The position numbers and the translations under genes were made by a program. DNA of 61,989 nucleotides, the filler included, from Sphacelaria rigidula (taxonomy: Eukaryota), in the NCBI GenBank assembly GCA_964200075.2. It is 7 parts of 7 records of this genome, joined end to end, with 100 filler letters (N's around TTAATTAATTAA, not from the genome) between each part and the next. Parts side by side here need not be neighbours in the genome. Positions count along the whole stretch, not along the records: positions 44,352 to 53,120 come from CAXNAA020010152.1; 6 more parts are not named here. One strand, given 5' to 3'. Below the pieces are notes generated by a model, which saw only the letters and a program-made list of their open reading frames with translations, made no database searches and was not told the DNA's origin. Below, piece by piece: positions 6,415 to 61,882 of the stretch (within the stretch, counting starts at the first letter, position 1; the number at the start of each line of letters is the position of its first letter).

Positions 6415-7005
6415 TTGCATGGCCCACACCTTGTTGGTGGTAAGGTGTTCGTTGATCCTGCCACCTTCACTACCCGCGTAGCATTACACTGCGGCCCTTA
6501 CGCCACCGCGCGTGCCAAGTGCGTCTCGTTGTTAGATAGCGGAAGTCCACAGACATTCATCAAAGAATCCATGTGGAATCATATAGAGCAGACTAGCGCT
6601 GCTTCCGATGTCTGCGAAATCACCACCCAACCTCGCGTTTGGGGCGGTTTCGGCGACTCCAATTCACCCTTGACGACACAAAAATCTGTTCGTCTTAGTG
6701 TGCAATTTTTCCATCACGATACACGTTCGGCTAGTCTCGTCGTCTGGGCTTACATCGTCCCTGACAGCACCATGCACCATGCTCTCCTCCTTGGCAAAGA
6801 CAGTTACATGCGCTTCGACCAACGCACATACCGCACCCTTCCACCATTATCGTCTAAGTCGGCGCCTCGTGGAGAACTCCAACTCGAACACTTTGGTACC
6901 CTCAATGGTGCCTTAGCCTACAAAAAGAATGAGCAGGCTACCGGAGCGGCTTACCATCTTTGGTACACCGGCAGTTCTGGTGTCACCCTTTCCGATGAGC
7001 CTTAA
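6415..7005 (+). pseudogene. pol: Retrotransposon aspartic protease region of pol
   Basis: LLDSGS active-site motif (~6529-6546) and downstream LLLGKD motif. In frame with the RT ORF, separated by one TAA at 7003. Confidence 0.85.
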
Positions 7006-7038
7006 CTCTTATAGGTTTCGCTTGTTCGCCGCAACGGT

Positions 7039-8771: not shown

Positions 8772-8871
8772 NNNNNNNNNNNNNNNNNNNNNNNNNNNNN
8801 NNNNNNNNNNNNNNNTTAATTAATTAANNNNNNNNNNNNNNNNNNNNNNNNNNNNNNNNNNNNNNNNNNNN
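8772..8871. other. Artificial contig linker (N-run + TTAATTAATTAA + N-run)
   Basis: 100-bp spacer with a six-frame stop cassette. Identical spacers occur at 17642-17741, 26512-26611, 35382-35481, 44252-44351 and 53121-53220. There is also a small internal 10-N gap at 12000-12009. Confidence 0.98.
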
Positions 8872-16779: not shown

Positions 16780-17827
16780 GTGTGCTGCTCGGGGTACTTT
16801 GAAAAGGCCACAGGAGGGGGGGGGGCTTCTCATTTGTTGCTTGCCCTTAGTTGTTTGACCATTGATCACGCATCCCTTTCGAGACGGAGCACCGTTCCTA
16901 CTCGTACTCCTAATAGAGACACCTCCAACATTCCGGCGCTCATTACGTTTCTTCCATACGTTGCACAAAAACAAATTACATATCTTATCCCCGTCCTATT
17001 TCGTCATCTTTGGCCACCATCTATCTTCTAGTATAACCATCGTTTTCTCGCCACTGTCTAATGCACCAACGATTCCATGCCACCTTCGTTCATGTCCCGC
17101 GTTTCCCTCTCTAGCACGTCCCGTTCCTCCTTGTATAGTTCAAATGCTGCAACTGTATGACTTCTGCTCTCTACTGCTTTGCCATTCTGTGCATTTACTT
17201 CCTCCACACGACTACTGGTATTAGGCCACAGGAGGGGGCAGAAGGAATTATTGAGAAATGCGTGCAGGACGTTCGTTGCTACTATGACGTACTCGTGTAC
17301 TCGTGTAATCTTGCTGCTGTTTATATTTAGGTTATCGCGTACTTGTATGTTCCCGAGTGCGGGGTGATAGTGTAGTGACTGTACCGCGATGTGTGACGTG
17401 ATTGCATCATTGGAGGGTTTCGAAAACGCGTGTTTGTGTCCTAGCCTAAATTGTGTCGGCGTTTGTACCTCATAAAGCGAAACATTTCCATACACTACTT
17501 TCTCTTTTTTTTCATGAACCGCATGCAAACCTCAAAACGCTGAGGGACGTATGGGAGATGCCACGATAGCGCCCCCCTCCTTCCCCCCCCGATCCGGCGA
17601 GAACCCGGCGTGCTCCGTCCCGGCTTTGTAGGGGCGAACCCNNNNNNNNNNNNNNNNNNNNNNNNNNNNNNNNNNNNNNNNNNNNTTAATTAATTAANNN
17701 NNNNNNNNNNNNNNNNNNNNNNNNNNNNNNNNNNNNNNNNNCCCCCCCCTCCGTCTCGAAAGGGAGGCGTGGTCAATGGTCAAACGACTAAGGCAAGCAA
17801 CAAATGAGTGCGCCCCCCCCCCCCCCC

Positions 17828-26199: not shown

Positions 26200-27046
26200 A
26201 AGTACTTCGAAGGTGAGGCGACCGCCATCGCCGAGCAGTTGGTGCAACACCACATACGTTGCACAGCTTTGTGCCACCCCGGGAGAAAACACATTCTGAC
26301 ATCCCCTCCTCTGCTATGCCTGCGGGAGAGGGTACATTCCTGTACTGCTCGCGACACAGCACCAGTGGATGCGTACTGCCCAGAGTTCGCAGTACCATTC
26401 GCCCGAATGACACGGCGCCGATAAGCGCGGTACGTGCTACAACGGCGTTCCCGACGGTAGTCACAACTTGTATACCCCCGAGCACGCATGGGTGGGACAT
26501 ACCGCGCTTATNNNNNNNNNNNNNNNNNNNNNNNNNNNNNNNNNNNNNNNNNNNNTTAATTAATTAANNNNNNNNNNNNNNNNNNNNNNNNNNNNNNNNN
26601 NNNNNNNNNNNGAACACACCACGGCGCTTCGCGCTTGGTGGTTTGAGTGCAAGCCTGGTCCGGCGAAAACCCGGCGTGCTGTGGTGTGACGGCATTGTCG
26701 CTATCCACCTCGTTGTATGCTGCTGTCGTTCTGGACCTGTTGCTATTGCTGATACACTGGCTGACCGTTTTTGTTACAAGTTTATCAGGACGAGGCCGCA
26801 CCCGTCCATGTGAGACTGTCGCAGCACTCTGTGCACATGGGGTTCACAAAATTACTTGCATCCAGCCGGTCACTCGAGCTTTTCACACCCGTATGTGTGC
26901 GTGTGTTTTGCGAAGTAGAGATATCGGAAAAATCAGTCCCTCTCTGTGTGCTTTTGACGACTGAATTGCAAAATCGACGAATATGTCCTTGTTGGAGTAA
27001 TAGCTTTTTGCCATGTTTTTTTTCTTTCTTCGTGTTGCCTGCCCAG

Positions 27047-33487: not shown

Positions 33488-36459
33488 CCCCAACACACAC
33501 GAGTGTTCAGCCGTAAATTGTGGCGTTCGCTCTGTTAGTGTTGTCATTGTGGCACATTCTTGAGGTTGATTTCACCATGGAGTCACCGAGTGATGTCGTT
33601 GTTGCACTTTCGTCAGACATGTTCTGGGATTGGATCCCTGTGCGCTGGAGTGGAGTTGGTTAGTGTGCCTGTTTGTGTCATTGCTTGGTTGGGCAGGCAC
33701 CCTGCCCACTACCCTTCGGTTCGTAGCATTGTCGGCCTGATCAAGCCTCATTGACGACACATGCACTGGGGTCTATCCCTGTAGAGTCAGTTAAGTCATC
33801 ACGTGTGTGGGATTTTGTGCGTGCCAGGCTATGTATTGAACAGACAGGTAACGAATCACCTCGGCTGTGAAGGTAGCTTGATATGCCAATCCAGCGTCGT
33901 ATTTGCAGCCAAGCTCACTGTAACACGGTAGGTATGCCCCCACCTGTTGTGTCGCTGTCCTGGGTAACAGCTCGCGAATCAAAACTATCCCCCCCCCCCG
34001 TCCCCTTTTTATTCTGTTTGCTATGGATGTACTCTGTAAAGCAGTGAAAAACATGGGTACAGAGCAGCAAATCACCCACCCCCCACCCCTTCGCCATTTC
34101 AATAATAAAGGTGTAATTGTGTGTTGTGAGAGTTCAGCCCCAAGTTTTGAGGATTGAGATGCTCGTGAAGTCTCAGGCGCAGGCTGTTGGTGGTGTCACG
34201 TTGATGTTATGCAATATCTACTGTTAGGGGAGAGAATTAGGGCCATAACGACCAAAAAGCCATGCGGAAAAAAAAACGCCGAGGAATAATGACACACGCT
34301 TCGTCCCTAGGTAACTTGCTTATGGTAACGACAGTGCAGCACTTTCATCGCGTTTTTCTCGACACGGGAAGCAAGCCGGCCCGTGGCACTTTACAGTACT
34401 CCGCACACATAGAATGGCCAGGGGATTGTCCGTTAAAATTGCTTAGATCGCCACAGCGGACCCCCAAAAAGCTCGCCAAAACAGCAAGAAAACAGCCTTC
34501 TTGATAACTTCTGGCTTGGTGTGGTTCCCTAGTTTTTGAATACTTTTAGCTTGGTATAATATATTCCGCAGTTCAATCCTCTGCTTGGTTGCGGAGATAT
34601 CCGCGGTGAAAGATCGGCACTTTTGGTTCGGGGACAAGCAGCATCTTAGCGGTACTATTATAGCAGTATGCCAGGGAAACGTTTCTCGCTGCTACTGTGG
34701 TGTGTGGCGGCCACTTCTTTTACTGCTGCTCGTAGTGTTGTCTCCTGATGCTTACAAGGGCGATCAGGCCGAAGCTCATAAGAGCATGGCGGCGCGTGTG
34801 CTGCGCCAAGTTGATACGGGGTTTTAGTGGGAGCATTCCCCACACTGCGTTGGGCAAAGCTTGCGAACGGTCGAGGCGCCTTTTTCACATGACTGACTGT
34901 ATGCCGCGAGGCAGTCTAGCCGAACCTTCGGGTCATCGGCACACAAAATCGCTTGCGAGGTCATTGTTGAGTTGGGTTTCCTTCTGTCGTCCAGGAAAAT
35001 AGAAGGGGCGGTGAACGTGGTGTAGTAACTCGCGGGCGTGTGCTTCTCGAGTGCTACAGCAACTTACAGCAGCAGTATACTAGTGCAACAACGGGGGCTC
35101 GTCAACAGCAGGAGCAGCAGCTTCCATCGTCCTGTTGTGCCCCTGTGTGCAGATGTACAGCAGCACCAGTCACAGGGTTGTCGTAGAAATGTTCCATTAT
35201 TAGAGCTCGGAAATGGTTTGTCTACCCGTTAACCAGTTGAATGGTCACGCGTAGCGCACTCATTAACCAGTTAAGTGGTACTTAATGGTTTCGGTCACCG
35301 AGCGGTGCAGCCGCGAGCCAAAATGCTCCCCCCGGCAGAGGGTGTACTCATGATCATATATGCCACAGTCCAGAGGGGGGGNNNNNNNNNNNNNNNNNNN
35401 NNNNNNNNNNNNNNNNNNNNNNNNNTTAATTAATTAANNNNNNNNNNNNNNNNNNNNNNNNNNNNNNNNNNNNNNNNNNNNGGTCCGCCCCTACAAAGCC
35501 GGGACGGAGCACGCCGGGTTCTCGCCGGACCAGGCTAAGGAAGGGGGGGGGGGTGGACGCACAGCCTGCTGCTCCCTAGCTTATTGCCCAGTCGTTGGCG
35601 GATGCGGTCAGCTACCGTCTACTGAGATCCTTGGCATGGAGGCCGCTGAGATGACAGACACATCGCCCCTCCAAGCTCATTATCTACCATGATTGCATTT
35701 ACGGGATCATGTTCCGTGTCGTGTGCCTCGACTGCGTACCACTAGTGCGGGCAAATTTGGCGAGGCGTGAGATAATTTTGCTACTTTGGCTACAGGCTGT
35801 AGCTGCCGTGCGCCCGTGTACTGTACACAGATGTGTATGAGCGATGCCGGCATCCGAGGTCACCGGGACAGGGTGGGCAAGGAGCAGAAGTAAATATACG
35901 AACCTCGCAACGCCCGCCAGGCTTTTCGTATTTTGTAAGCGTTTGTTGATCAATTTCTTTCAACAATATACTAAAAAAATATGATGACAATGAAAAAAAT
36001 TGCCCTCCGGGAGGGGGGGGGGGCGCTCCGTGTCCGAATTTTTTCTCTCGACAGACCCTTGGGTCGGCCGCTTGTCGGTCGAGGCTGGCAGCAACACCGG
36101 AAAGAACTACCAGTCAAGGTCGGCCATATGTAGGAGGCAGATGCCCTTTGTTTTTTTTATACACGTGTCGAGCAAGACGCGGCCGCACAGCGCAGCCAGT
36201 CAGAAGAGAGTCTTCTGCAAAGCACCTCTGCGGACCTGTTCGGGGAGGGGGCAACGCCTCCTTCCAAACAGTGCCAGACTTAGCGTGACCGTTACCATGA
36301 CGGTCTGAAAAGGACAGGGGCGGTTGCTGCAGTATTCAACGGAGAATTCTGACGGCGCACGCTTCCACGTGAGTATCTCGAGCTTTCTCTGACAGGCGCG
36401 TGATCGCCCTCTTGCGGTTTTTTTTTTATTTCGCTTGGTTCCAGAAGAGGACAGAGTGT

Positions 36460-43977: not shown

Positions 43978-44251
43978 CCCTTTTGGGACCGGACCCTCAC
44001 TAACACAGCGTTGACCCTGTGTTAGTGGAATAATAACAAACACAAGGGCTCCGGACGCGGGGGCCTACGGCCCCCTCGTCCTTCGGTGTACTGTGGTGTC
44101 ATGACGTTTAGACTTGTGAGAAATGTTACCAAGAGTGACGGTGATGTTGGAAAGAAGGAGGACAGACTTGGCAGGAGGCCCCCGCGTCCTTTGGTGTACT
44201 GTAGTCTCATGACGTTGAGACTGGTGAGAAATGTTACGAAGAGTGACGGTG
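43978..44251 (+). mobile_element. piggyBac-like left end with hairpin and 108-bp tandem repeat, cut by the contig end
   Basis: TTAA|CCCTTTTGGGACCGGA (same TIR as 22474); CACTAACACAG/CTGTGTTAGTG stem; repeat units at 44085 and 44193. Confidence 0.6.
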
Positions 44252-44351
44252 NNNNNNNNNNNNNNNNNNNNNNNNNNNNNNNNNNNNNNNNNNNNTTAAT
44301 TAATTAANNNNNNNNNNNNNNNNNNNNNNNNNNNNNNNNNNNNNNNNNNNN

Positions 44352-47093
44352 CCAAGGTCGACGAATGTATCGTCGCAGTGTGAGAGGATATCAGTAACTA
44401 CAGTAGTGAGGGATTGTCGTAACTGGCTGCAGGAAAGGCTTACATCAGATCCCGCAGGGAAGGGTAGTGAAGGCTTGACTTTGCCTACAAACTTCGGGTC
44501 CAAGTTCTTGTACTGATGGCGTACAGCTGAATGTGTGCCTGTCGGTCCGTGGAAGAGGGGGAAGGGTCACTGGATTGAGGGGCGGGAGCCGAAGGGGCAA
44601 ACTGTAAGCGGCGGGTAGCAGGTGTGGTGTCTTCCTTCGCTTGCTTGACTTTGAGCTGAGAGTGACGCTCTTTGGCGACAGTGGATGATAGCGGAAGGAA
44701 ATCGCTCAAAGTGGGGGGCGCCGGACGTGAAGGGGCCGCACTCGTGTCATTATGAGACCCGTCAGTGCTGTCCGACTCACTATCGAATGAAGGGCGACGA
44801 TGACGGCGAGATCGTGACTGCTGCGATATGTGAGATTTACCACTATCCTTGAGACGGTGTTTCCCTTTCCCTTGAACAGTCCAACTGCCGCCACTGTCCG
44901 TTGCATTGTGCTCTACGTGACCTGCCTGAAGGTGACTAGTGGCAGTAGGGTGTGAACGGTCCGTCCCATCAGCAGGGCTGTGTACTGTCATGCGTATCTG
45001 CTCAATTTCTGTGAATAGCCCGATAAGGGGCCCGACGCACTCATGCCGTAGCGCGAGGCTAAATTCGGAACGAGGGTTGGAAGGTATGCATTGAACGACG
45101 CCTGCTAACGTTACGGTCTCGGTGTGTTTCGGAAACCAGTTGAGTATCTTTATCGAACTGTCAGGGAACAGTGAGGCGCTGTGCCTGATACGCGTAGGTA
45201 AGGAGGGTTTCAGGGTCGTGGACACAATCGTAGAGGGGAACAGCTGCCAAAGGTTCTACACCAGAAAGATCAAGACCGTCGGAACGAGTAGCCTTAGGAA
45301 GTAGCGTTGGGTGAGTGGGTTTAGTGGAGAGTGATTTGTCCGCTGTGGAGGCAAATGTAGGGGGAGTTTTGCCGCGGTGAACTTTGGGGGGCACACCAAA
45401 CGTGGTTGAAGCGCCGGGTGCGATCGTCTCAAGTGGCATGGGAGGTAGTCCCGTGGCTACAGGGGCGACATTCGGAGTGGCATTGGAAAGTGTAGGTGAA
45501 CCAGTGGATGAGTGATCAGAGTCGGAGTAAGTGTCGATGGGATCGCGGGTGAGCAGACGTAACTGTTTCGTCTGCTCGTCTAGTGAAGATTGAGTGACGG
45601 AAATGCGATAGATGGATTGTTCCGCCGTCGTATTGTGCTGCTGTAAAGCGTGTTCATATTGGGCTTTAGCCGCCTGCAAAGTCTTGGCGGTTTGCCGGAG
45701 GAGGCTGGCTTCTTTGTTCTACCCCTCCGCCAAGGCTTTGCGTTTGGCTTCGACCTCACGACGTACTCGCTGGATTTCCTGAGCGTGCTCGAAAGCTTCA
45801 CCATTCTTACGTTCCACTTGCGCTTGTGCGGTCTGGGCCAACAAGTCGTCCCAGTAAGCGGCTCGTTCCTCGCGGGAAAGTTTGTCCCACGCATGGGCTG
45901 GAATAGCAGCGGGACGGCTATGTTTAAACTGGACCTTAGCTTTGTCGCGTGCTTTCTTGGGTAGGCGCGTAGCCGTGGTTTTTCCCGACTCACGACCACT
46001 CGTCGAGGCTACGATATCAGAAGCGTAGGGCTCCGCAGGGGAATGATCACGAACCCAATGGTCACCACTAGCAGTAGAGTCGACGTGCCTAGTGTCACTG
46101 GTAAGAGTTTGAGCGGCGGCGGCATGCAGTGGGAAATCAAGTCCCAGCTGTATGTCGGTCACCATAGAGAGGGGAATTCCTCCCGACTGAGATTGGGCAT
46201 CATCATCATCCTCTACACTTTCAATGACTGGATCAGGCACGACTGTGTCTGACGCAAGCAGTGGTTCACCGGATTCGGAAGAGGATGTGCCTTCTTCATC
46301 AGCACGTAGCTCTAGCGAAGCCGGGGAGTTAGCGCTTGTGTACCTGCGCGGGTGCGCGTCACAGTCAGTGTAGAACGAAGGAGGGTAATGAGTGACCGGG
46401 GTGTTGCATTGGAAATGGAACAGGAAGAGAATCTACTGTAGGAGCCTGTGGGCGTGGTGGGTGTCGGCCAGGCACCAGTGAAGGACAGGGAGGGGCGATC
46501 TAAGAAGGGACTAGAGAGAGGGTGCGGACGAGTTGTCCATACCGGAGTCCACGAAATGGACTGGATGAACACAGGACCTTGGGAAGAGGGTGGTACTGTA
46601 GTGTTATCATGGATGTTTGGTTCGCATACATTGTGCAGGGTGGGGTCGGGTGATGTACAGTCAACACCCACGTTGGGCACAAGCAAAATGTGCTGCACGG
46701 TGAGCATATCTTGAGACAGCAAGAGACGGTCAACATTAGCTACTGAAGAAGAAAAGGCCGACGGTACATGCGGCGGGGTGGGTGTAGCGAAAGGATGCAC
46801 GCTGATACAGTGCCGGTAATGGTAGAAAAGAGTTGGTAGCTGGTAATGTACGGGCAGCTCATACGGGAAAAATGTAACGGAGCAGGAGAGTCACGGTATG
46901 AATTGGACTCTACATCATGACTCGCATCCGCTACAGGGTAGGTGGGTATCATTACTGGGGCGGGTGCCACAGAGAGGTAGCTGGGACGAGCAGGTGAGGA
47001 TGGTGGGGGGGCAAGTGCTATTGCTCGCGTACGTTCGCGACGGAGTCGGCGCATCGTGCGAACGTCTAGTGTATCAGAGGTCCTTGAACTCAT
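44352..47093 (-). pseudogene. Long disrupted gag-like ORF (S/P/T-rich + coiled coil)
   Basis: Chain of minus-strand ORFs 47093-46740, 46800-46312, 46240-45719, 45679-45161, 45225-44485 and 44503-gap. Composition and architecture parallel the contig-1 gag N-terminus. Confidence 0.6.
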
Positions 47094-47266
47094 GTCACCA
47101 GGGATAGATGACAGAGCAACGGCATCAGACGGCTAGACGGTGAACAAACAAAAAAGATGCGCATGCAAGGCACACAGTAGTAGTGTAGTGTACACAACAG
47201 CTCGGCAGTCCGAACACAACGCAACTCAAAAAAGAAGTGCAGCACAGGCAGTGCGGGAGCTCTAAC

Positions 47267-47936
47267 TGTGACGTGACAAGGGTGAGTCACCTTGAGAAGG
47301 GTGTAATGGTGTTCACCACGATTGATTCCAGGTTCAGACCTCTGTGTAAGTTGTTTGTTTACTCAGCTCAGCAGCGCGAGCTGACCAAAGTCGCTCTCGT
47401 GTATTTCACGCAAGGAGACAACAAGCCAATACAGACAAGAGTAGCACCGTTTTTTCACGCAATTGATTGCATCCAAGCTTCATCTACAGAACAGGCAAAT
47501 ACAAGACAAACCGAAACAAGCCGAAGCCTCAATTAATAAAACACACCAGACAAAACGGCAGCCCGACTACTGCTCTTATTTCTGGGACTCACTTTCTCGC
47601 GGTTTGTAGATACTCCAATGGGGAAACTGTTGAATTGCAGCCAAAACCCGGGATTGAGGAGATAGTGACGTTGGGGAACTGCTTACAGCTCAAACGTGTT
47701 TCGCCACCCCATAATCATCATAAACTGAGGTCATACCATAAAATTCAAGAGCCGAGCTCTTCAATACATTCCATGGTTGGGTCGCTACCTTTTTTTCGAA
47801 TTCAAGTACATGCTCTCCGTAGAACGTCAACCCAAGCGGAAGCCAATTTTCCGCTGTTTGAATATGAAAATGTTCATCATTCAACGTCACCTTTGCCCAA
47901 GATCATGACTACGTCCTGCAGTCACATCATATCACA
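47267..47936 (-). repeat. Candidate single LTR (~670 bp)
   Basis: Minus strand begins TGTGATATGA after the purine-rich GGAGGCTAG and ends TCACGTCACA (imperfect terminal inverted repeat). No second copy is present to confirm it. Confidence 0.5.
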
Positions 47937-49774
47937 CTAGCCTCCGATGGGTAAAGCTTTCGCAGGAGAACACAGTGAAACGAGATTGCTTTACCCACAT
48001 ATTCCATTCCCCCACACCACAAAAACATATTTAAAAAAGAAAAAAGAAAAAAAAATACCACAATATAAAGAAAATGTGAGACACGTCGAGGGGGGAGTAC
48101 TGTGACGGGGACTAAAAGGTCGACACGACATATTGAAAACAAATCCGAAGGGTGTGAAAAAACAAAGAATCGACAACCGTCGAAAAAACAGCGCCGAAAG
48201 CTACGAAATATCCGGGAATCCAGGACAAATTCGCCACAAAAAGCTGAAGCAGAGAAAAAACAAGCCGGTCGTCCATCCGCTACGAAAACCTTGACAGAAT
48301 GCTTGACTGCTATCATGCGAAGGGGACATTATGTCTCAATACACGTTCAGTTCCGTTGTGAGAGTCTTTTTCAAGCAGCCCGCCAACGTTTCACAGTACC
48401 GGAGAAGCACAAACGATCGTACACTTCTTTCATCAGTAGAACCCAACGGTGTAGAATGCTCAAGCGGGAAAAAAAGAGAAAGAAAGAATGAAAGAAATCT
48501 TTCGCTGGGCGGAAGACACCGGAAACCAAAATCAACATGTAGCCGTGAGGCAACATGATGCACCAACGTGACGATGAAGGGCGGCCCATCGAATTGAAAA
48601 GGGGCCTGTATCGTCCCACAAAGCGTCAACGAATAACACACAACCGTAGGAGATAAATCCAAGGCGGGTAATCCGATGCGTTCGTGGTGAACCACGACAA
48701 GTATACAGAAAGAAGGACCAATGCGGTCTGCTCTTGGATACTTGCCCGTTCAGACGAGAAAATCGAGAGGGTGTGCATACAAACGGAAGGATAAACTCCC
48801 GCCGAGCACATCAACGCGATAATCCGCCAGCAACAACCCTACAAGGAAAACGAACCACCGTACTGATTTCCGAAGCGGCGGACCGGATGTACGACCTCGA
48901 GACTGCGAAAAACAGAACAATTTTTGGCGGACTGGTGTTGGGCGATAAATAGCCGAGCAACGGAACTGAACATAATCCAAGAGAAGAGTAATACCCCCGA
49001 ACATGGGACAACTGATACAGCGAGCAATTACAAAGAATCTGCGATGGCACTCAGGAAAAGGGCTTGTTGGACATGCAACACATAACCCGGTCATCGAAAG
49101 CCAACGTGAGTCCAACGGTATTAAGCTGTAAAGAAAAAGACACACACACACAAAACAAAGATAAGATTAGGGGGGAAACGAATAACAGGGTACGCGGAAA
49201 GAACCAGTCCGTTGGAGAGGCTGATAGCGTACGTGGTTGGGCAATCGCACACACAAGGTATTTGCCCCGGACAGGGGTTGATACGGGACGTGCTGAAGAA
49301 TACTAACGGTGTACGTCGGCCGCCTTCGAATACGAACAAAAAGAAAAAGAAAAGACGAAAACAACGAAAACAGGTGACCATGCGAGGTAGGAAGAAGGGG
49401 AAACAGGACAGAACACAAAAAAAAAACAAGGAAAAAAGAACACAAAAGCTTCATACAGGAACAGTCATACGCGGCAACGGGTCACTATAGAACACAGACA
49501 TACGCGGCTACTGGATGCTGCCGAGGGAAACGTGGGCAACCGGGCTACACGGTGTTCAAGGAAACGAGACCACGAGAGGACAAGGGGAAGCAGGGGGAAT
49601 TATAAAAAACACGACGAGACCAGGGGGACTGCGATTGGCGGTAGGGAAAAACGCAGACCATCGACCCACAACATTACTTGAGAAGACGACACCAACGACA
49701 AAACAAGAAAAAAAAACAGGGGGGATTTCGAAGAACACGAAAAAACTCGGAAGGAACGCGATTCGCTACTAAGA

Positions 49775-52700
49775 TTATTCCGTGTCCCACGCCGTGTCGG
49801 GGTTGCGCAAGACAGCTGTGTCGATGTCCCCTTTGTCGTGTCGTTGTAGGCACCAAGATCCTCGGCGAGCGGTCGGCATCTCGGTGTGGTGATCGTCGTG
49901 CAGACGGATCTTGCGAGGACCCGGATCATCGAGGAAGCGGATGTAGTAGGAATCGTCCGCCTCAGGATCTATCAAACCAATCTTCCTCAGCAACCACCGC
50001 GAATCCATAGCCCTGTACCAAAAATATGCGCCTTTCGGCAAACGTTTCTTCGAAAAAGAGCGCAGGTATTGCGAACGAGAAATGAGACTATAGCCCAAAA
50101 TGAAAAATCGTGCCGAGTGTTCTCGGGCCAGTTCACGAGCTGCTGCGCCTTTTCGCATAGACCTATATCGTTTGTTCAACGGGCGGTGTTGGACGACATC
50201 TCCAACCCAATAAAAAAGTATTTCTCTTTGAAAATGACGCAAATCCTCCTCCCGTTCCCGCGTAACACGCATGAGGCCTTTCCAGTGAGTCTGATACGTA
50301 ACCGCAATTTTACCGCCTCGATCTCGGACTAGTTGATGGCCCGAGATGCGATCTACCACTACACGTTCAAGAGGACCGTCAGCGTCTTCAACTGTCATGT
50401 GGTATGGTGGGGTTTTTTCCGCATACCTGGTTAGCACATACCGACTGAGCCCCATAGGCAATTGCTTGGGCATATCACTAGTGTCGTGAGGGGGCAGACA
50501 CGGCTTGCACCGAAGCATCAAGACCCGGTTTTTGGGTTTGACGCCAAGTTCATCCGTGGGGAAATACAAATACAAAAGCTTCTCACCTACTGGCCTATCG
50601 TTAGGTGCGGTATCACAAGGCCCAACTGCCGAAATCTTCCAAGGACCAGTCCAATTCAAGCAAAGCTTCGACTTCAACGCCTTATCCGACGACGACTTAG
50701 CAGAGCTTGCACCTTGGGTTAAAGTTCTCATATCGTTATACACCAATGCCCATTCACCTACTTTCCACACCGGACGTTCACTGCATCATCCAACACGCTG
50801 TTTGCTTTAGCTACCTTTGCTGCGTTGATCAAGTTCTGCTCCCGTACCACTTCATATGCAAGACGAAGACGATTGATTACTAACAGACATATGATACTCC
50901 ACAATATCCCGATCCAAACTCTGATGACCACCAGGGGGTTTCCTGTCGAACACTGTCAATGGCAACCTGAGCATACGGTCAATATGAACTTCATTGGGAG
51001 CCAAGCCTGTGGCGGCATTGACGGAGTTGTTGCAGTTCATTTGGACAAGGGGTAAGTGCAGGTCCTAGTCCGTTTATCGCTCATTGGTCACTGTGGCAAG
51101 CATTTGTGCCATCGTGTGATTAACTCGTTCGATCCCACCGTTAGGGGACGGATGGTATGAACTAGTAAAATACGATGGGCACCCAGGAGATTACTGATCG
51201 CGGCAGACAGTTTGCCGGTAAAATGTGGGCCGTTATCGGATAACAAACGTTTGGGGACACCCCACTGAGGGATGTATGTGTACACAAGGACTTTGGCAGT
51301 CCCTTCTGCGCTATAGTTGGCCTCCGAAACAGTATTCATCACAGCATATCGACTGAACCGATCCGTAAACAACAAAATGCACTTGTTACCACTATCATTG
51401 AGGGGCAGGGGGCCAAAGTAGTCCCATGAAACTATTTCACCAGGCCCATTGGGGAGGGGCATAGAGATCACCGGCCATCTAACTGTTCGACGCGAAGTTT
51501 TGCGTGCTTGGCAAAGAAGACACCGCCGAACCCACCAACGCACACATTGGTAAATCCACCAAACAAAACGCTGAAGCATCTGGAAGGTCCTAGCGACGCC
51601 CAGATGTGTGGATGCTTGTGAGTGGCATTCATGGAGAACTCATGGACGCAGAAGCATCGGAACATAAATACGTACGGGGGCATCACCCAACAAACGGGCG
51701 TGACTACTTGTAGGCTCCCCTCTAGGAGGTTTCGTGGGGAGGCGGTGAACTAAAAGAACAACGCCATCATCATCCGTATAAAGCATGCCTTTACGCGATA
51801 CTCCAGTAACTTCATCCTGTGTGGGGGCTCGGTGGGGCCTTACTGGCAAAAAGAACTCAGTTTCTGGAAAGGGGGAGGGGCATCCTTTGGATAGATAATG
51901 TATAGCTGCTCTACAAGTAGGTTCTGCTTGCTGTTCCCGGGCCCAATCGGCGTGAGAAAAGAGGGTCAGTTCCTTGAATACACTGTCGGAGGGGTTGTCC
52001 AAAACGCAGGGGATCGAATTGAATTGCTGTGGGATGGACACGAGGCGTTGTTTGGATGAAGGGCAAAGGGGGTGGTCAGTGTATTCTCAAACGGAACGTT
52101 CACCTCTATTCCTACGTTGTGGAGGGTGTCGGATGGTGTGGTACCGGCGGTGGTACCATCACGGGGTGGAGGAAGCACTGTCGAGGTCTCGACTATGGTG
52201 GGCAGAGGTGGTTTGGGAGGTGTTGATTTTCTGGTAGCCTTGCGCCGTGGAGGTAACGGGGGCGCAAGGAGGCTATCGGGGACTGGAATGGGGTTGGGGA
52301 TTGGGAGGTCTGGGCCGGCTGCTGCCCGGGCGGCAGCCGTTTCTGCGGCCCGGCGTCCTCGGGTCCGGCTCGAGATGAGGTCTCGAACTTGAACCGGGAG
52401 GGCGCAGTCAGTAGAAACCGGCTCGACAGTGCAAACCATCCGATGACTAGACGCGCGACATTGATCATACCCGCCGGTGGTTGCACGAATTTCACTCCTA
52501 ACTGAACACATCGATCGTGGGGCCAAACTGCCCAATACAGAAGCGTGAGCCGAAGGCGTCAGCTTATTTTCAATAAGTGCCGAGTTGTGGTTCAGTGAGA
52601 GTGGTGTATAGAGTCCGCGATGACCATTTGTGCTCATGAAATATACAATATCTTCGGTGGGGTCTGTGATGCGACCCAAGGCGGAGTTGTCGATGGGTTG

Positions 52701-53120
52701 GGCTGGTAAGGATAAGCGTGACAGGAAGTCGGCGTTTGCGTTTTGGGGACCTGTGCGGTACTTCAACGTGAAGCTGTAGGAAGACAGGATTTCAAACCAG
52801 CGTTGAACCCGGGCGTTGTGTTCCGCCATCTTGGCGAGGTTTTCCAAATACTTATGATCTGTATAAATCACAAATGGGAGGTCATACAAATATTGCTGGA
52901 GTCGTCGCACTCCCCAAACAATTGCACCTGCTTCTCGTTCCATAACGGACCAGTTTTGTTCGTTTGAGTAGGTGGTTCGGCTCAGATATACATTGGGGCG
53001 AACACTAGCATCGTCTTGTTCCTGTTCCAGTGTGCAGCCAAACCCAATTTTCGAAGAATCCGTGTGCAATCGGAACGGACGGGAGCCATTTTCAGCAGCT
53101 GATCAGTCTGGAAAAACCAG
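49775..53120 (-). pseudogene. pol: pol 3' half: RNase H, integrase (HHCC, DDE, GPY/F), chromodomain
   Basis: HTDSS...YTDH...NADFLSR; HECH...HLG...CLLC; WDYFGP, SDNGPHF; KLCLNWTGPWKI; VDRISGHQ...YQTHWKG...EREEDL. Several frameshifts and stops. Confidence 0.92.
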
Positions 53121-53787
53121 NNNNNNNNNNNNNNNNNNNNNNNNNNNNNNNNNNNNNNNNNNNNTTAATTAATTAANNNNNNNNNNNNNNNNNNNNNNNN
53201 NNNNNNNNNNNNNNNNNNNNAGCACGGTTTGCTTATTTTGCCAAAACTATCGACGCTAGCACTTTCGAGTGCTCATGGAAAATGTTATGCGGAAAACCCC
53301 CGAAAATACGCCATCCGCAAAAAATACTAGACGGAGGTCTGTGCAGTATAGGAGGGAAACACGATCTCGATCGTTATTGTGAAGAATTTTAGACGTATTC
53401 GTTTATCTGAATATTTACCGTTTCGCCGCTGAAGAGCGGGAAAACTGCTCATACTGAACCAAAAACGGTCAATAACACCCTCCTGATAAACGGTGTATCA
53501 AATCCGTATCGTCCCAAAAACACCAACGTGAGCATTGCAGTTTGAGCGCGGCCTAAGCTTTCTCCCTGAATCTACCGGCGCCAGCACTTTCAAGTAGTAG
53601 TGAAGTATAGTACTCCAGAAAAACTCAGAAAAAAAACACAACTACGAATTCTGAAAACTTCTGACGCTGACTACTATATTCCTCATAACCCTACGGTTAC
53701 ATACGCGGATTTTCAGCAACATCCCATTGTTTCGTGTAGATGCCAGACACGCCATTCCTGGCCCAGTACCAAAGGAGTCAATTTTTT

Positions 53788-53982
53788 CCACAACGAGCAA
53801 TGACTCGAGTGCTCGCCCTATTAGTTTGTTTCTATGACGAGCAATGACTCGAATGCTCGCCCTATTATTCTTTTCCCACAACGAGCAATGACTCGAGTGC
53901 TCGTCCTATTAATTTTCACGGCCAACGAGCAGCCCAACGAGTGCAAGTGCCACGAGTCACACTCGTGCTCGTCCGACGTGTG
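53788..53982. repeat. Right end of the CACGAG-array element family
   Basis: Three to four ACGAGCAATGACTCGAG units, then GTGCTCGTCCGACGTGTG, as at 41140-41181. Confidence 0.82.
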
Positions 53983-54324
53983 AAAAATTATAACAGACGC
54001 GATACAAAAAAAGATATACTGCTAATCCTATAAGATCCGGTGCCGCAAGCGACCAGTCGGGCTACTGGAGACAGAGCAAAACGTTCCCACTCGACACGCG
54101 AAGTCAAACAGAAATAGAGCAAAACCCAGGAACCAAGGATCATTAACCAGAGCAGTAAGAATCGTAGACTTCCATCCTTGAACCTCTACTAGGCCGGAGT
54201 TTGTTATTCGCCGGGGGTTACGTCGGTTATGTCCTTTCTCCACCCATATCTACACACGCCTGGGGGGTCTGAAAACACAAAGGTACACATATTACTTGTA
54301 TACTCAATTCCAATACAGCCGCCG

Positions 54325-54615
54325 CGCCCCGGTGGTGGAATGGTCTGACTATCGCCATTAGGGTGGAGAGAGCGAGGGTTCGATTCCCGATGTGTTGGGT
54401 TTTTTTCTTCGTAGTATATGATCTCTACCGTGGAACGCATGGGAGCGTGAGTAAACAAAGAGTTGTTGATTGGGTTTGTTTGACGTGAGTTGACGCGGTG
54501 CGGGAGTGCTGACCCAATCCGCGAGACCAGAATGCAAGGCGTGTACCGGGGAGAGAGGGGTTGATCCCTGGACACTAGTAGACCACAGACTCGTCCCGAG
54601 GGCGGGGAGGGGTTC
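54325..54615 (+). mobile_element. tRNA-derived SINE, family 1
   Basis: A-box TGGTGGAATGG and B-box GGTTCGATTCC, followed by the shared body. Confidence 0.8.
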
Positions 54616-57600
54616 AAAGTGCGACAAAAAAAACATGATCATTAAAATAAGAATACAAAGGCACGGTACCGCACATTGTCATCATGCTGGAATATTACAT
54701 GTCGGGTTTTCATCGGCAAGGCACACCTCACCGCACGCAGAAATGTGAGGGACGTGGTGAGTACTCCTGTAACCTCCGCCCACTTCAGCGCGGTAAATGT
54801 CTGGCTATACGTTCTACCATCCCCCTCCAGCTGCCCTCGACCGCACTGGCATCCTCAGTTCGGACCTCGAGGTGCGCTCGAAAATCACTCTCCATATACA
54901 AGACCGAAGAGTTCTCGTCACGACACTTCGACAGTGAAGGGTCCACTCGATGGAAATATTCGAGGCCGTGTCCGCCAGGGTATGCCTGATATTTTGATAT
55001 TTTGAAACGTCGCACATCACCTAAGTCAGTCACAATGACTTGTATAGGCTCCAGAGAGGGGAACAACAGCACTGGGCTGGCTGCTGCTGTGGGCATGGGT
55101 CGGATCTCCACTTGTCATGTTACCAACATGTCGAGCGTACCCCACTCGACACGTCCTTGCAAACAAATATGACAGGGCCAAAATAGCAGCGATTAGCCAT
55201 CCGGTGGGAACCATTCGAGGCCACCGTTTCAACGCGTGATCGTCGACATCCCGATGAGAACCAACAAAGTGTTATGAGGGTGTAAATGTTGGGGTGCTGC
55301 CCTGCGTCAAACAAGACTCCGGTTTAGACGAAAACAACTTATGACATCTCAATGGCAACAGCATCAGATTCCCAAAAGAAATGCTGGCGAAGGGGATGAA
55401 GCAATGCGTCCTGCGCGATTTCGAGGTGCGGACATTCCACCGGCGGAACCCCCGTCCAACCTCTTTCGATAGACACGGGTAAAATGAAAAATCTTCAACT
55501 TCCCTCCTGGACTCAAAACACCACCCGTTCCAGTTGCAAACACACCTCAACAATCGTGCCCACCGGTCTCACCTACCCCCTGCCCCCCTCCGCCCCCCCC
55601 CGTCGCCTCCATCGCCAGCATCCTGCTGCGTATCTCCTCCTTGCTCTCTCCCGACCTCCTTTCAAAGTGCATTTAATCGGGAGTGCATTAGCGTTGCAGA
55701 AGTTGGAGGGTGACGGAAACGTATCCATTGATTGTCATGGATCCGAGTGAAAAACCACAACCTCATCCCCGAGGAGCACATCCACTCGATGTCAAACCTA
55801 GTTCTTCCCATATTGCACAGTGAAAATGGTTGGACGCTACAAGCGCGACCGCAATTGATCATCCTTGTTTCACTTAATAGCAATACTTGGGCTTGCTACG
55901 GTAGAGTGTTAAGCTGTGCCGTGTCGAGAAAACAAAATCACATTAAAAAGTCGCGCGTTTGTGGGATTGAGAGCTCGATTCCAACCCTCCCCCCAACCAA
56001 AATAATTTCGGATGTGCTTTTCGGCCTGCGGATGCATCCTTTGGCGAGAACCAAAAGACTTGTAATAAATTATTTGGGCTGTTTGAACAACCGCATTGCT
56101 CGTCAGGGAGCATAACTGCGTGCTGGGGAGCATGCCATGCAAGCATGCGACACGTGACCGTAGAGCGGCGCAGATCCCGCAAACAATTAAACCCTGACGC
56201 GATTGCTGAATGCGTGTCTCGATAGGACGAGGAGTAACCCTCTGCCCAGTTCCATGGACACTTCTGGGGGCGACCAATAGATGTCGGCCAAGGTGTATAC
56301 GACCCTCGCGGGTCATTCGTTTTTAAAATCCGGAATCTTTTCCGTCGCGGGTGTCAATCACCCGGCCCTGTACAGTACACCAGATGCTGGTTTGAACACT
56401 TTCTACGACAGCCCCCCCCCCCCAAACCAGCCCAAAACTGTCACAAGGAAAACGGTCATACAGCGCCTGATGTTTGGTTTCAGGCTGCATGAAGCGCCTT
56501 ATATGGGCGACATTGGCGGAAACGAACCCAGGCATTAGAATTCCCAGCTGCTCGTTATGCTCGTTTTTTTTTTCATTTCGATTTACAGTACGTGTAAATC
56601 TTGCCTCCCTTCACCAGCAAGCTTTTTTTTTTGGGGGGGGGGGGCTATCGTGGAAAATGTCTTTGGAAAAAGTGACGACACCAACATATAAAAAATAAAG
56701 CAGGAGAGCATCACCATCAAGTTGAACCAATTGAGTCGCCTTCTCAACTTCCCGTCAAACCTGATATACAATACTTTCGAGCTACCTCTCAATTAAAATT
56801 CTGTAAAATCAGACGAGAACCAAATGGTATGACGGGTGTTTATGAGGGGTAAAACAAATGTCGACCCGGGTGCACTATTGTTAGGGTGATATGTGACATA
56901 CCGACGATACGCACTGTCAATTTTTCGCACTGCGTGTACGACTTCCCCGCCGTAAGCCATAGCTCCCTTTCCCAGAGTCGAGAAGTTGTGCAAACGCACG
57001 CTGCGCTTTAACAACAGTAATCACTTTGTAACCATGCAGTGCTCACACATGCGGACGTCACGTGTAAATCGTGTACGAACGCGAACGATCCGAAGCGCAG
57101 TTTGGGCACTTCGTATTCGAGCGAGCAGCTTCTTCTCATCGTGCGTCAACGGAACACCTCCTCCCCTGGCCGCTCAAGCCATCTCGGCAACATCTTACTC
57201 CACCGCCAGAACCCACGACGTCACCCGCAAACGGAGATCCGCCGCCCTTCGTCTCTTTTTGCTCTTGCCCACATTGTTTTGCGCCACCCCCCGTTCATTT
57301 CCCTGTGCTCGATGCATATACCCTGTTCTACCTCACTCAAACTTTCTTCTACCTACGCCTCCCTGCCAGGCCTGCCGGCATCTCACACTGACACCCGCCG
57401 CCGCCAGCTGTGCAGTACCTGTACTAGGTTCAACCGTCAGATAACGTGCATTATCCTAGACTTATTCTATGCCTTATCCACGACCAGCTGGGGTGTTGCC
57501 TGCCTTGCCCTTGGTTCGTGCAGTACCTCGGCTGGATTCAGACGGAATGCTACCTGCCTTAATATTTGAGGCGACAGTATCAGATGCGGCCAGCGGAGTA

Positions 57601-59272
57601 ATTTGACGCTACCATGCCGCTCGGCGACAGTATCAGATGCGCTTGCCGACCGTTATTCGGGCTGTCTAACCTCCTGGGCATTCATTTTCGGCGGCCTTCT
57701 CACCGCTTCAATTTTTTCCCCACGGTATAGTTGCACTATGGCGCCATCCCCCCGAACTCTGCGCCCATCCAACGAACGTCGCACGTGCTGATGGAAGACG
57801 TCCCGTCGCTGCGGAGGAGCCTGACTGCAGCGGCACGGCGTAGAGACGGAGTATACAACTGTTCTTTTAAGGCTTCATTACCTTGTATTTCGCCGCAGTG
57901 GTGGCGACAGATGCCGACGCGTAGGGGCATCGAACGACACTCTTGCATTCACGTCATCAAGCGCTTTCTCAGATCACAGGCTGTCAACAAGAGGTTGCGA
58001 TATACTGGACTATCACCTCTGCGGGTTGTTGAAATGTCCGCCAGTACAGCATCAACCATCTCGCACTACTGTTGTCTCCGGCTGACGCGACTGCGTCGTC
58101 ATCGATGACCCACCGCTCTTTTCAACTGTATAATCTTTGCCCCTGACGGATTTACGTCCTCACATACCTCTTGGCCTCACTTGTACCTCGGATGAATAGC
58201 AGTCATCGCCTGTACGGGTGTGGACTACATCACATCAAGAGAGGTGGTGTGCGAGCTGGACGCGGTGCAATTCCATGGCACAAGACCTGTTGAGGCGGTC
58301 CCATCGCAGACGGCCGCCGAGTCGAGCTTTCTACGCGAAGTGTACATCTTCCTCGCCGTGTCTACGCCACTTGCACACGCCACTCGCACACTCACACAAG
58401 ATGCTGTACGCAAGAATGTTCTCCACTCAAGCTGCAGTGGCGCCAACAAGAGAAGCCTTGGGTGTGGCGGCATGCTGCCGTTCGGTGGAGACCGCGGGGA
58501 AGCGGGTTTACTGCTGCTGCTGCAACGACGGCACAAGTTGTACTAGTTTTATTATCGGGTGATGATTACATATACCTGTGCCATCATCCACCAACGACCA
58601 CCCCGAAGCACCTACCTCAGTGGTCGTTCTGGGGGCCTGACCCCGAAACGGTTTTTGCGGTTGGATGTTCCCAGTTTGCATCATTCCCCCGAAGATTTCA
58701 GAGACGGTTCGGAAGAATCCCGGTGGTACAAAGGGAGCGAGAAACCGCGAGACACACCAATTTCCATGCATCCCGACAGCTGCTGCAATCTGACGACGCA
58801 GGGCCCGAGGTGAGTTGCTCTTTCGCAGTACATAGGTGTACGGACTACGTGCGCAATTGATCCTTCGTTCGCTTGGCAAACAAGAGGCTGGAAGATACAG
58901 TATTCAACCCCACATAGCTGTAGATCGTTTGCCCAATTACAACAACGAGACACCCCACTTTTCATCTACAAGCAGCGGCAAAAGGTTACGATGACCATGT
59001 GCCATAACCCTTTCTTTGAGCAGTGGGTAAGTGGCGCTACCCATGCCACGACGCTACTCCCCCCCCTAGCGAGCCCTCGATGCCAACAGGGCATGCTGTG
59101 CGGACTCTTCTGTTGGCTCCGATTCTTGGCTGTACTTTCGTACTCAGTGCAGCCATTCCGTCCACGATTGGGCTGCTGTGGTCTTCATTATATTCGAGAG
59201 AACGAGCCGTGGTGTAGAGTTCACGCGAACTGGTCGACGAGATTCATGTCGCGGTTGAATGAACAGTTCGTC

Positions 59273-59614
59273 TGTTCAGGAAGCGAACAGTTTACCCATT
59301 GAACCAGTAAGTGCTCAGTGGTTCAATGGGTAAACTGTTCGCTTGCTGAACAAAAGATATGATGTGTGGTCCGTCCCGGCATGACGCATCAGTGATCTCG
59401 GAGGCCTCGCGTACCCCTCGCAAGCCTCACTGTTTACATGTCAAACTCGTTCCTTCAACAATCGATCATGTCGGGACCCGAACCGCATATCTTTTGTTGA
59501 GGAAGCAAACAGTTTACGCATTGAACCAGTGACTTTTTTTGTTGAGGAAGCGAACAGTTTACCCATTGAACAAGTGAGCGCTCACTAGTTCAATGGGTAA
59601 ACTGTTCGCTTCCT
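59273..59614. repeat. Cluster of near-perfect palindromes (AGGAAGCGAACAGTTTACCCATTGAAC arms)
   Basis: Hairpins at 59273-59352 and 59545-59614, plus a half copy at ~59500-59530. Confidence 0.9.
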
Positions 59615-61882
59615 GACCATGGTTTCAGTCTAGATGATCATTCTGACTACAATATGAAGGGCTTACAGTCTCCACTCGCCCGGCGTACGTCGTAGGCGCC
59701 GATTCGAGCTCTGCCAACGTAGTCTTGATCTAGAACAACGTATGCATCCCCCGTGCGTGCCTGCGCTTTCTCGGTATGCCCTGGGTTGGGGCTGGGGTTA
59801 AAGCTAGCGTCATGAATTCACAACATAACTATTCCAACAATGGAATTTGTCCGCACACTTCGCCTCAACACACAACACCCTAGAAAATAGACAACAAATA
59901 TAATGAGTAAAATAGACAACAAATATAATGAGTATTGATGCATATAGAAAATTGTCTAATTCATTGTCTAGTACAGTAGACAATTGGTTCGATGTTGTAT
60001 CGACACCGTACACAGTACACTTTTTGCCCCTGTGATATGCTGTCTAGGGTGTGAAACGTTTTCGTGGTAGGTGTCTCCGGCTTCACCCTAACGAAGCCGA
60101 ATCTTCAATTCGGTCCTTCTTTTTGCACATCACAGACACACCGCCAGCGATGGGGGTTCACGCCTTTTTGTTCTCGATCTTTTTGCCGCGGGAGTAGTCT
60201 ATTTGAGTCATGCACACCATTTGCGAGTGAAATTGATGCCCATTCGGCGGATGACCCATGGTAGCCGTCAAAGGGTTGACCTGTTCACCATAGTCGACAC
60301 GTTCTAGAACTTTGATCGTGGGATTGCTCGCCAATTTTTCCGCCGAATCCCTACCGGAGTTTTCAGAACGTATTTCTGCAAAGCACGAATTATAAGCGAT
60401 GCGGACAGGAGAGAGCAAGGGCGGTCCATACCGTGCATCCGACCGTGGGTCTGCGCTCAGCTCTCCTGCCTCGACATATCATCGCATTCTCGCGCTGTTT
60501 TAAGTATGCAAAAGATGTGATGAACCGTGTTCGATCATTCTTTCATGATTGGTAGGAACAAAACGGTTTTGCAGCAGTTGTCAAGTTGTTAATTTTCACG
60601 GCGTACCATGCGGACACAAACCCCGCCCTCACCGCGCTCCCGCGGTCCACTCTCCTTACCTTGTCCGTTCAGTAATCATGTTGTCGAATCTCTCAGCATG
60701 CTCGACACCCTCTTCATGAAAGTGCACTCGGCGGAGTTGGTTGTATACTAAAAACGTGCAGAAAACCACTTCAAGTTGCAGTCTCAACCCTGACCGTCTT
60801 CAGAGGCCCCTCACTCCCACCCGCAGGACGCTTCATCCGGAATCTGGATGGCTGACCTCATGCGTGATGTCCACGTTGCGCTGACATCTCGTATTGTGCA
60901 CGTGCATCACCAATTATTGTACACGGTTGCTAACAGCAGCAGAGTATGCATGGCGTGGGATGTTCATATGTACCACCTACCCAACCCGCCGCTGGAAGCA
61001 GATAAGTAGCGGTGAAAGTGGTTTAAACCTGCATGCTTACGACTTGGAATGTTTTGGGGGTTCCTGATGTTCAGAAACCTCGTTCCCCTTTACGTTGAAG
61101 TTACACAACTGTAGCACACGTCTCGAGTTCCCAATCCCTGCAGACATGACTGTGTCTGTGTAGCAGACTCATGGCCAGAAGTAGACATGGCCTTAACAGT
61201 GCAGGGCCCAGCCCTTCGTGAGAGTGTCAGACTGAGGGTGTCATGCTAGTCACCCCCCTGTGGTCATGAACGAGATATTGTTGATTCTTCGCCCCATCCC
61301 ATTTAACCGCTGTTTTCGTTGTCGCGCTTCAGCAACCTCGACCGATCTTCCCCCACGTATCTCTCCTCCACTCTAGCTGGCAAAGTGCCCACCCCCCGCC
61401 CCACGAACGTGCGCCGGTGCGGCTGCTATCTAACCGTCCCTGGAAGCAAATGCTAGTACGGACTGTCGCCTCACCTCGGGCGACGAGTCGTATTTCGGAG
61501 GCTCACTTCGGGATGATTTTTACGTGGGGTTTACCGCGGTTGCACCACGGAAACTTGTAAATGACACGTTACCATGATACATCGAAACTACAATCACCAT
61601 CCGAACCGTTACCAAGCAAATGGCATTCTTCCGTTCCGATCCAAATCTTCACCGAGCAAGTTATATTCCCCCATTCCCGTCCAAATAATCACCGCGCAAA
61701 AACAGGCATTATTGTGGTTTCTCATTGGCATCCGAACAAATAGCGCGCAAATATATTTCTCCCAATGCACAGGAAAGCAAAGTGAATCATCGAAGTGAAT
61801 CAACATCACGTTACCTCAGTAGGCCGCTAATACATGTGCACAACAATCCCCGGGGAATGGGTCGCGGGAGTGATGCCGCGAC

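Follow-up and report, generated by a model that had tools for sequence, protein, structure and literature searches.

The 61,989-nt stretch of the Sphacelaria rigidula genome assembly GCA_964200075.2 analysed here (the window) carries, on its minus strand, part of a Ty3/Gypsy retrotransposon that belongs to a brown-algal family whose integrase is predicted to end in a chromodomain and a Tudor-like barrel, joined by an arginine-rich helix. This tail has several hundred relatives, its parts are under purifying selection, and we consider it reasonably probable that it anchors the integration complex on nucleosomes and thereby biases insertion, with a specificity unlike the H3K9me reading of HP1-type domains. 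Residues are numbered below after P0001, the 331-amino acid (aa) translation of 49775-50770 (minus strand), in which residue i begins at position 50770-3(i-1).

The open reading frame (ORF) that bears the tail lies on the minus strand at 49775-50785 and comprises 336 codons from stop to stop. Upstream of it, in the same orientation, Pfam recognized the Ty3/Gypsy pol domains RNase H (E 3.6e-30), Integrase_H2C2 (E 3e-10) and rve (E 2.8e-9), and aa 949-2063 of the polyprotein P0163, a family member of 2,075 aa, were placed by tblastn on 53120-49793 in three frames. The upstream domains and the match to P0163 together identify the ORF as the last third of an integrase, in which a GPY/F-type motif (NWTGPWKI, 50630-50653) can be recognized. 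When the tail was searched against the window with tblastn, only this one copy was found.

The tail was modelled with AlphaFold2 (AF2) from a family alignment of 146 rows, mostly fragments (93 cover the chromodomain, 82 the barrel, and 34 both). The model of aa 125-331 reached a mean predicted local distance difference test (pLDDT) score of 90.2 and a predicted template modelling (pTM) score of 0.79, a value that suggests, for a chain of two domains, a fixed arrangement of these domains relative to each other. It has strands at aa 139-149, 155-163 and 170-173 and a helix at 174-189, followed by a long helix (200-217), a short strand and helix (227-239), and the strands of the barrel (249-253, 259-267, 274-279, 286-289 and 306-311). 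In this prediction the arginine-rich helix and the two folded domains are assembled into a single compact unit that follows the integrase C-terminal domain. An initial annotation, made by eye, had proposed a chromo-like stretch after the GPY/F motif (50365-50207, i.e., aa 136-188), a basic helix, and an aromatic, beta-rich stretch at 50041-49838 (aa 244-311). In the model, the first of these corresponds to the three strands and helix within aa 139-189, the second to the helix at aa 200-217, and the third to the five strands between aa 249 and 311.

Structural neighbours were sought with the VIA structure search (48,161 chains; 50 rows listed per query; Z scores below 8 are flagged as possibly reflecting just a common arrangement) and with Foldseek, which in BFVD reached nothing but uncharacterised proteins of phages and giant viruses (E≥0.011). 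For the whole tail, 30 of the 50 VIA rows listed fell on the first domain and 20 on the second. All 30 rows on the first domain (model residues 1-103) were chromodomain or chromoshadow proteins, among them Chp1 (Z 7.1, root mean square deviation (rmsd) 1.7 Å, 53/55 residues), dHP1 (Z 6.6, 1.7 Å, 51/53), Oxpecker, Chd1, Polycomb, SUV39H1 and cpSRP43; these small domains were covered whole, the rmsd was low and the list of matches was homogeneous despite Z scores below 8. Together with the three-stranded antiparallel sheet and C-terminal helix of the AF2 model, this points to a chromodomain fold. The Pfam family Chromo (PF00385) was matched at E≤0.01 in 14 of the 146 family members (best E 1.7e-4); three full polyproteins had no Chromo match at this cut-off, and the window copy had none at E≤1.

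The second domain is predicted to be a Tudor-type SH3-like barrel. Modelled alone (aa 221-331; pLDDT 88.2, pTM 0.77), it again has five strands, as in the whole-tail model, and over the size expected of such a barrel (about 55-60 residues) it could be superposed on the Tudor domains of RDM15 (56/58 residues at 2.1 Å) and PHF19 (55/57 at 2.3 Å). In VIA, Tudor, Agenet, PWWP and Spindlin domains matched it at Z 4.6-5.5 (for the barrel alone: AGDP3 Agenet 5.5, Spindlin-4 5.3, RDM15 Tudor 4.9, PHF19 Tudor 4.8), and further matches were PHF20L1, LBR, PWWP, BAHCC1, UHRF1, SGF29, TDRD3, MRG15, MBT and SMN. About 24 of the 50 titles listed for the barrel name a Tudor, tandem Tudor, Agenet, PWWP, chromo-barrel, MBT or Spindlin domain, and five more rows (PHF19, MTF2, SGF29 twice, and HTATIP) are Royal-family domains as well; the remaining rows belong to SH3-like barrels of other kinds (KOW, BAH, ribosomal proteins, R67 DHFR, and the integrase of prototype foamy virus (PFV)). 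Foldseek gave the Tudors of PHF1, PHF19 and MTF2 probabilities of 0.99-1.0 (21-26% identity, rmsd 2.0-2.7 Å over 47-52 columns; for PHF1 and PHF19, probability 1.0 and 23-26% identity), with E-values of only 0.02-0.1 and a TMt of 0.60-0.65 for single-domain Tudor chains. The family profile, compared with 177,635 PDB sequences at E≤10, retrieved three matches, all to the PHF19 Tudor (E 0.067-0.081, strands 1-3). Pfam at E≤0.01 reported Agenet in 2 and SH3_VIII-1_N in 3 of the 146 members, and the best ESM Atlas matches of aa 221-331 (0.76-0.77; DUF3104 and a PTM/DIR17-like Tudor) lay under the noise level of that tool. We conclude that the barrel is probably a true member of the Royal family, with the Polycomb-like Tudors as its nearest solved relatives, and that the by-eye assignment was right for both folds.

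An exhaustive phmmer scan of 1.84 billion representative proteins with aa 125-331 detected, at E≤1e-3, 428 relatives, of which 158 reached E≤1e-10 and 10 reached E≤1e-30; those with species names come from the brown algae Nemacystus decipiens and S. rigidula. In a second database, all six long relatives span 96-99% of the tail, and three of them (1,618-1,848 aa) also contain reverse transcriptase (RT), RNase H, H2C2 and rve. The intact polyproteins of the family have 1,600-2,400 aa, and a YbiA-type NADAR domain stands at their start (P0163, Pfam E 3.6e-49; P0166, 1.7e-49; also found by tblastn in the loci L001 and L002). In the metagenome locus L002, 2,386 codons (190-7347) stay open in one frame that runs through the tail up to the contig end, and L001 likewise has an intact frame of several kilobases. 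Judged by their sequences, intact members appear to encode one giant polyprotein consisting of NADAR, protease, RT, RNase H, integrase, chromodomain, helix and Tudor-like barrel. A separate gag frame or a zinc-knuckle match was not seen in L002, where about 270 codons precede NADAR within the frame. A tandem array of 4-5 copies of ~78-nt units lies at 886-1272 of L001, a full-length relative, inside the open frame upstream of NADAR, and indicates that the polyprotein has an N-terminal region which is repetitive and probably disordered.

Column counts in the family alignment show that conservation extends over the entire tail and includes the linker helix with its four conserved arginines (counts in the helix: R206 in 107/131 sequences, A210 in 115/134, R212 in 109/133, and R216 in 105/134), whose mean column conservation of 0.62 compares with 0.61 and 0.50 for the two barrels. 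The barrel carries the family motif WW-L-G-K-I, and its N-terminal extension, a short strand and a helix, has the conserved residues Y227, W/Y235 and F239; together with W251, Y252, W259, Y275, Y295 and W306 they are among the conserved aromatics on or near the barrel. Among the three intact relatives L001-L003, the proportion of nonsynonymous differences (pN, Nei-Gojobori) was 0.10-0.32 and that of synonymous differences (pS) a saturated 0.61-0.83 in each of the four segments compared (integrase C-terminal region, chromodomain, linker and barrel). With pN so far below pS, purifying selection is indicated for every part of the tail. Both segments are thus predicted to fold as the initial annotation had it and, as the 428 relatives, the column counts and pN/pS attest, they are conserved among related elements, so that its assignment stands.

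The cage of the chromodomain was mapped by motif and by the VIA ranges for 6mha, the cage residues of HP1 being taken to include W45 and Y48. Of its three aromatic positions only the middle one is kept in the family (W in 91/108), with L38/V8/I7 of 78 at the first (3% F/W/Y) and L70/I15 of 110 at the third (5% F/W/Y); the window copy has V137, W163 and L166. The cage of the PHF19 Tudor consists of W50, Y56, F74 and Y80 (PMC7105160) and was placed on the barrel by one numbering offset in the alignment between the family profile and PDB. Two of these four positions are aromatic in the family, Y56 aligning to W (63/84) and F74 to F (60/87), whereas W50 aligns to A38/G20/S17 of 103 and Y80, which lies outside the alignment, falls on P (74/88) if no gap is assumed; of these positions the window copy keeps only F279. 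The initial annotation had suggested a dual histone reader. The predicted folds agree with that annotation, but a complete canonical cage is found in neither domain.

Four of these positions (the first and third of the chromodomain, and those of W50 and Y80 in the barrel) weigh against a nucleosome-reading role, as do several results of the searches. Foldseek against PDB returned nothing at E≤1e-3 for either model, and all VIA Z scores were below 8. The best VIA match of the second domain was the translocation-signal domain of bacterial TraI (Z 6.4, 76 residues), and chromoshadow domains scored within 1 Z of chromodomains for the first, so that a protein-binding or dimerising role is inseparable from a reading role by fold. 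Pfam at E≤1 found no reader family in the tail of the window copy.

In the mechanism that we propose, the chromodomain, helix and barrel would act as a targeting tail at the C-terminus of this brown-algal Ty3/Gypsy family's integrase, holding the integration complex on nucleosomes as chromodomain-bearing integrases do; such tethering would shift where new copies land. Chromodomain-directed integration was reportedly described by Gao et al. in 2008. The ligand, a nucleosome feature or mark, would be recognized by a surface to which both barrels and the arginine helix contribute. Because neither aromatic cage is complete and H3K9 and H3K27 methylation is reportedly missing from the host lineage, recognition is probably not the classical HP1-type reading of methyl-lysine by each domain alone; the additional aromatics of the barrel and the conserved arginine helix would fit a composite binding surface.

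A less probable explanation, although one that deserves serious consideration, is that the tail is folded and selected but does not read a histone mark: the degenerate chromodomain might be chromoshadow-like and bind protein, and the barrel and arginine helix might bind DNA, RNA, the nucleosome acidic patch or a host protein, or aid multimerisation of the integrase. The incomplete cages in both domains would agree with this, as would the chromoshadow domains of HP1-alpha, Chp2 and Rhino, which match at Z 5.1-6.4, level with the chromodomains (VIA), the presence of KOW/NusG, PWWP-ssDNA (single-stranded DNA), PcrA Tudor and a retroviral intasome among the matches of the barrel, and an arginine-rich helix that is conserved as well as the barrels are; the title of a 2026 article in the Journal of Biological Chemistry (PMC13285377) also refers to DNA binding on nucleosomes by the PHF20L1 Tudor. 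On the other hand, the Pfam matches are to Chromo (14/146) and chromoshadow is not among the five families found at E≤0.01, the nearest neighbours of the barrel by sequence and structure combined are the methyl-lysine-binding Polycomb-like Tudors, and the conserved W251, Y252, W259, Y275, Y295 and W306 could form a shifted aromatic cage on the barrel. Of the two, we prefer nucleosome tethering. A more specific proposal, to which we assign only a small probability, is that chromodomain, arginine helix and barrel evolved in brown algae as a single composite nucleosome-binding unit which reads a lineage-specific state (for example, H3K79me2, H4K20me3 or H3K36me3), the barrel being portable and perhaps shared by autonomous elements and non-autonomous or host-derived partners with the same chromatin address.

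The C-terminal domains of integrases are themselves SH3-like barrels, and the second barrel might accordingly be a duplicated or extended version of this domain, or a duplicate of the chromodomain, instead of an acquired Tudor-type module. Retroviral intasome chains do occur among the weak Foldseek rows of the whole model and the PFV intasome was matched by VIA at Z 4.0, but the Foldseek rows have an rmsd of 17-22 Å and probabilities of 0.18-0.30, and the barrel is found without an integrase in the three proteins P0076, P0105 and P0168. Pairwise hhalign comparisons (barrel with GPY/F region, barrel with chromodomain, chromodomain with GPY/F region) gave probabilities of at most 0.4%, and with no similarity between the three barrels of the tail we reject an internal duplication, which makes this origin very unlikely. 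The reading of the tail as a fortuitous open frame in decayed DNA, without biological meaning, can be dismissed for practical purposes: the window copy is indeed dead (frame shifts, stops, and loss of W171, W260 and G262) and its tail gives no Pfam match, but at the level of the family this reading is refuted by the 428 relatives, the intact L001 and L002 frames and the low pN/pS, and the confidently predicted fold also speaks against it.

The chromatin of brown algae forms the background to these findings. In Ectocarpus, 5-methylcytosine is negligible, H3K27me3 and H3K9me1/2/3 are missing, and repeats are associated with H3K79me2 and H4K20me3 (PMC12477816), in agreement with what the initial annotation had stated on methylation, H3K27me3 and H3K79me2. 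The same study (Genome Biology 2025) describes four Ectocarpus Gypsy lineages, of which three have putative C-terminal chromodomains and are, by RT phylogeny, unrelated to chromoviruses or Chronos. One of them always has an N-terminal NADAR domain (e.g., Gypsy-12_Ec32) and, matched by architecture alone, it is like the present family (NADAR start, RT, RNase H, H2C2, rve and C-terminal chromodomain), but its accessible description mentions only a “putative C-terminal chromodomain”. Gypsy-10_Ec32, called the first Tudor-bearing transposon, has a C-terminal Tudor domain on its integrase for which a role as chromatin reader was proposed (PMC12477816). Like the present family, it is a brown-algal Gypsy whose Pol ends in a Tudor-type barrel, the barrels being compared by description only, but it belongs to a separate lineage in which the Tudor occurs without a chromodomain. 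In the main text of PMC12477816 the word “Tudor” is used three times, each time for Gypsy-10_Ec32, so the combination of a chromodomain and a Tudor-like barrel in one integrase is not stated there, and a literature search, which for that article covered the main text, turned up no other description of this pairing in an integrase. ECR-1, a centromeric Gypsy element of Ectocarpus, likewise has a chromodomain fused to its integrase and comes from the same host group, but it represents a different lineage, keeps all three cage aromatics, and no second barrel is reported for it (PMC11541908).

Integrases of chromoviruses usually end at the chromodomain, whereas the algal tail continues for ~140 further conserved residues. 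Closest in its cage is the group II chromodomain of plant chromoviruses (Tekay/Reina/Galadriel), which also lies behind the GPY/F region of the integrase and, compared with the Y-W-Y cage of HP1, lacks the first and third aromatics but keeps the middle W; group II chromodomains are described as known only from plants (PMC3605345), and the sequences of the present family suggest a group II-like cage pattern outside plants. The Tudors of PHF1, MTF2 and PHF19, which read H3K36me3, are the best neighbours of the barrel in sequence and structure combined, albeit with weak E-values, and align with it in the D-G-L-aromatic-aromatic-L-G-K-I strand and in the F of strand 3. The algal barrel differs from them by A/G/S at the position of W50 and probably proline at that of Y80, by its additional N-terminal strand and helix, and by its predicted packing against a chromodomain.

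The barrel also occurs outside pol. It terminates, without an integrase, three proteins (P0076 and P0168, ~830 aa each, and P0105, 612 aa) that are homologous along their length (29% identity) and contain coiled-coil and S/R-rich regions, and a fourth protein, P0048 (626 aa), ends in chromodomain and barrel behind an unrelated N-terminus. No Pfam family was found in any of the four; aa 160-520 of P0076 retrieved only itself from 5.8 billion proteins, the N-termini of P0048 and P0076 show no BLAST similarity to each other, and the N-termini of these proteins are absent from the window and from L001-L005. They may be proteins of non-autonomous elements or host genes. A gene model of N. decipiens (P0046) joins TIMP and WSC domains to the helix and Tudor-like barrel of the transposon; most likely it is a chimera that gene prediction created across an insertion.

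The window does not represent continuous genome sequence but consists of seven pieces of ~8.77 kb joined through N44-TTAATTAATTAA-N44 linkers (besides the one in Table 1, at 8772-8871, 17642-17741, 26512-26611, 35382-35481 and 44252-44351; an N10 run lies at 12000-12009). Because the pieces are stitched together, adjacency across a linker is meaningless and elements at piece ends are artificially cut. The end of the element at 53120 is such a piece boundary and not a biological truncation; the copy stops there before the NADAR region and contains no RT.

Table 1. Features of the Ty3/Gypsy copy and the adjoining piece junction, in window coordinates.
Feature	Position	Strand	Basis and remarks
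Short C-terminal tail and stop codon (49775-49777)	49775..49828	-	translation; pLDDT ~60 at end
Tudor-like five-stranded barrel (predicted), aa 243-314	49829..50044	-	AF2, profile against PDB, Foldseek, VIA, column counts
N-terminal extension of second domain (predicted), aa 221-242	50045..50110	-	AF2, column counts
Arginine-rich linker helix (predicted), aa 200-217	50120..50173	-	AF2, family counts
Chromodomain (predicted), P0001 aa 134-190	50201..50371	-	AF2, VIA, column counts
Integrase core end and C-terminal domain with GPY/F-type motif	50399..51166	-	tblastn P0163 from aa 1595 (to 2063 at 49793), frame -3; translation; ORF list
Integrase H2C2 and catalytic core	51169..51957	-	tblastn P0163 aa 1344-1593, frame -1; Pfam; in-frame stop 51640-51642
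RNase H part of pol	52623..53120	-	tblastn P0163 aa 949-1114, frame -2; Pfam RT_RNaseH E 3.6e-30; cut by piece end
N44-TTAATTAATTAA-N44 linker, non-genomic	53121..53220	.	piece junction

The window copy is a dead relic, a decayed member of the family. Its frame changes at ~52.6-51.96 kb and at 51166/51169, in-frame stops occur at 51640-51642 and just above 50785, and, by the column counts, the conserved W at aa 171 has become R, that at aa 260 L, and the conserved G at aa 262 R, the last two lying in the WW-L-G-K-I motif. A Pfam match of this copy to keratin-matrix (E 0.086) was discarded as noise. Contigs from four sequencing runs indicate a high copy number of the family; in run X1, 2,474 contig pieces matched it (630 at ≥99%, 856 at 95-99% and 988 at 90-95% identity). 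At the 51166 frame change and at the 51640 stop, most of the related contigs do not share the window sequence, so both breaks are private to one or a few copies. The tail was also covered, at ~94% identity, by contigs of two runs that are guessed to be RNA, a coverage that has no bearing on expression.

A further fragment of this Gypsy family, divergent in sequence, lies at 6418-8769 on the plus strand, where the piece end at 8771 cuts it off. Its match to aa 274-1049 of P0163 (protease, RT, RNase H) has 52% identity and stays in one frame, whose 784 codons include 2 stops. In the RNase H part, where it overlaps the minus-strand copy, the two have no similarity at the DNA level. In a search for long terminal repeats (LTRs), no long direct repeats were present in 44000-60000 or in L001, short tandem arrays excepted, and LTRs could not be defined. 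The DNA 3' of the stop codon gave no meaningful alignment among the window, L001 and L003. Just 3' of the pol stop the coding strand is strongly T-rich in all three (49400-49775 on the minus strand of the window, 8180-8600 in L001, and 1780-2200 in L003); these T-rich sequences do not align, and neither a polypurine tract nor an LTR start could be assigned in them. The ORFs 3' of the element (45.7-48.5 kb) had no Pfam family, only a low-complexity match to CENP-C_mid below the cut-off, and no tandem repeats were found there.

Fusions of integrases with chromatin readers are the clearest case of transposons that choose their landing sites by chromatin state, and to our knowledge they were known before 2025 essentially as single chromodomains. 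Brown algae are reported to be without the marks read by classical chromodomains, yet an abundant family keeps a degenerate chromodomain together with a Tudor-like barrel under purifying selection. The interest rests with the family, the window copy being an ordinary dead relic. If the pair binds nucleosomes, it would provide a natural two-domain probe for the marks of “safe” or repeat chromatin in brown algae and a testable model of how readers are combined in the evolution of transposons.

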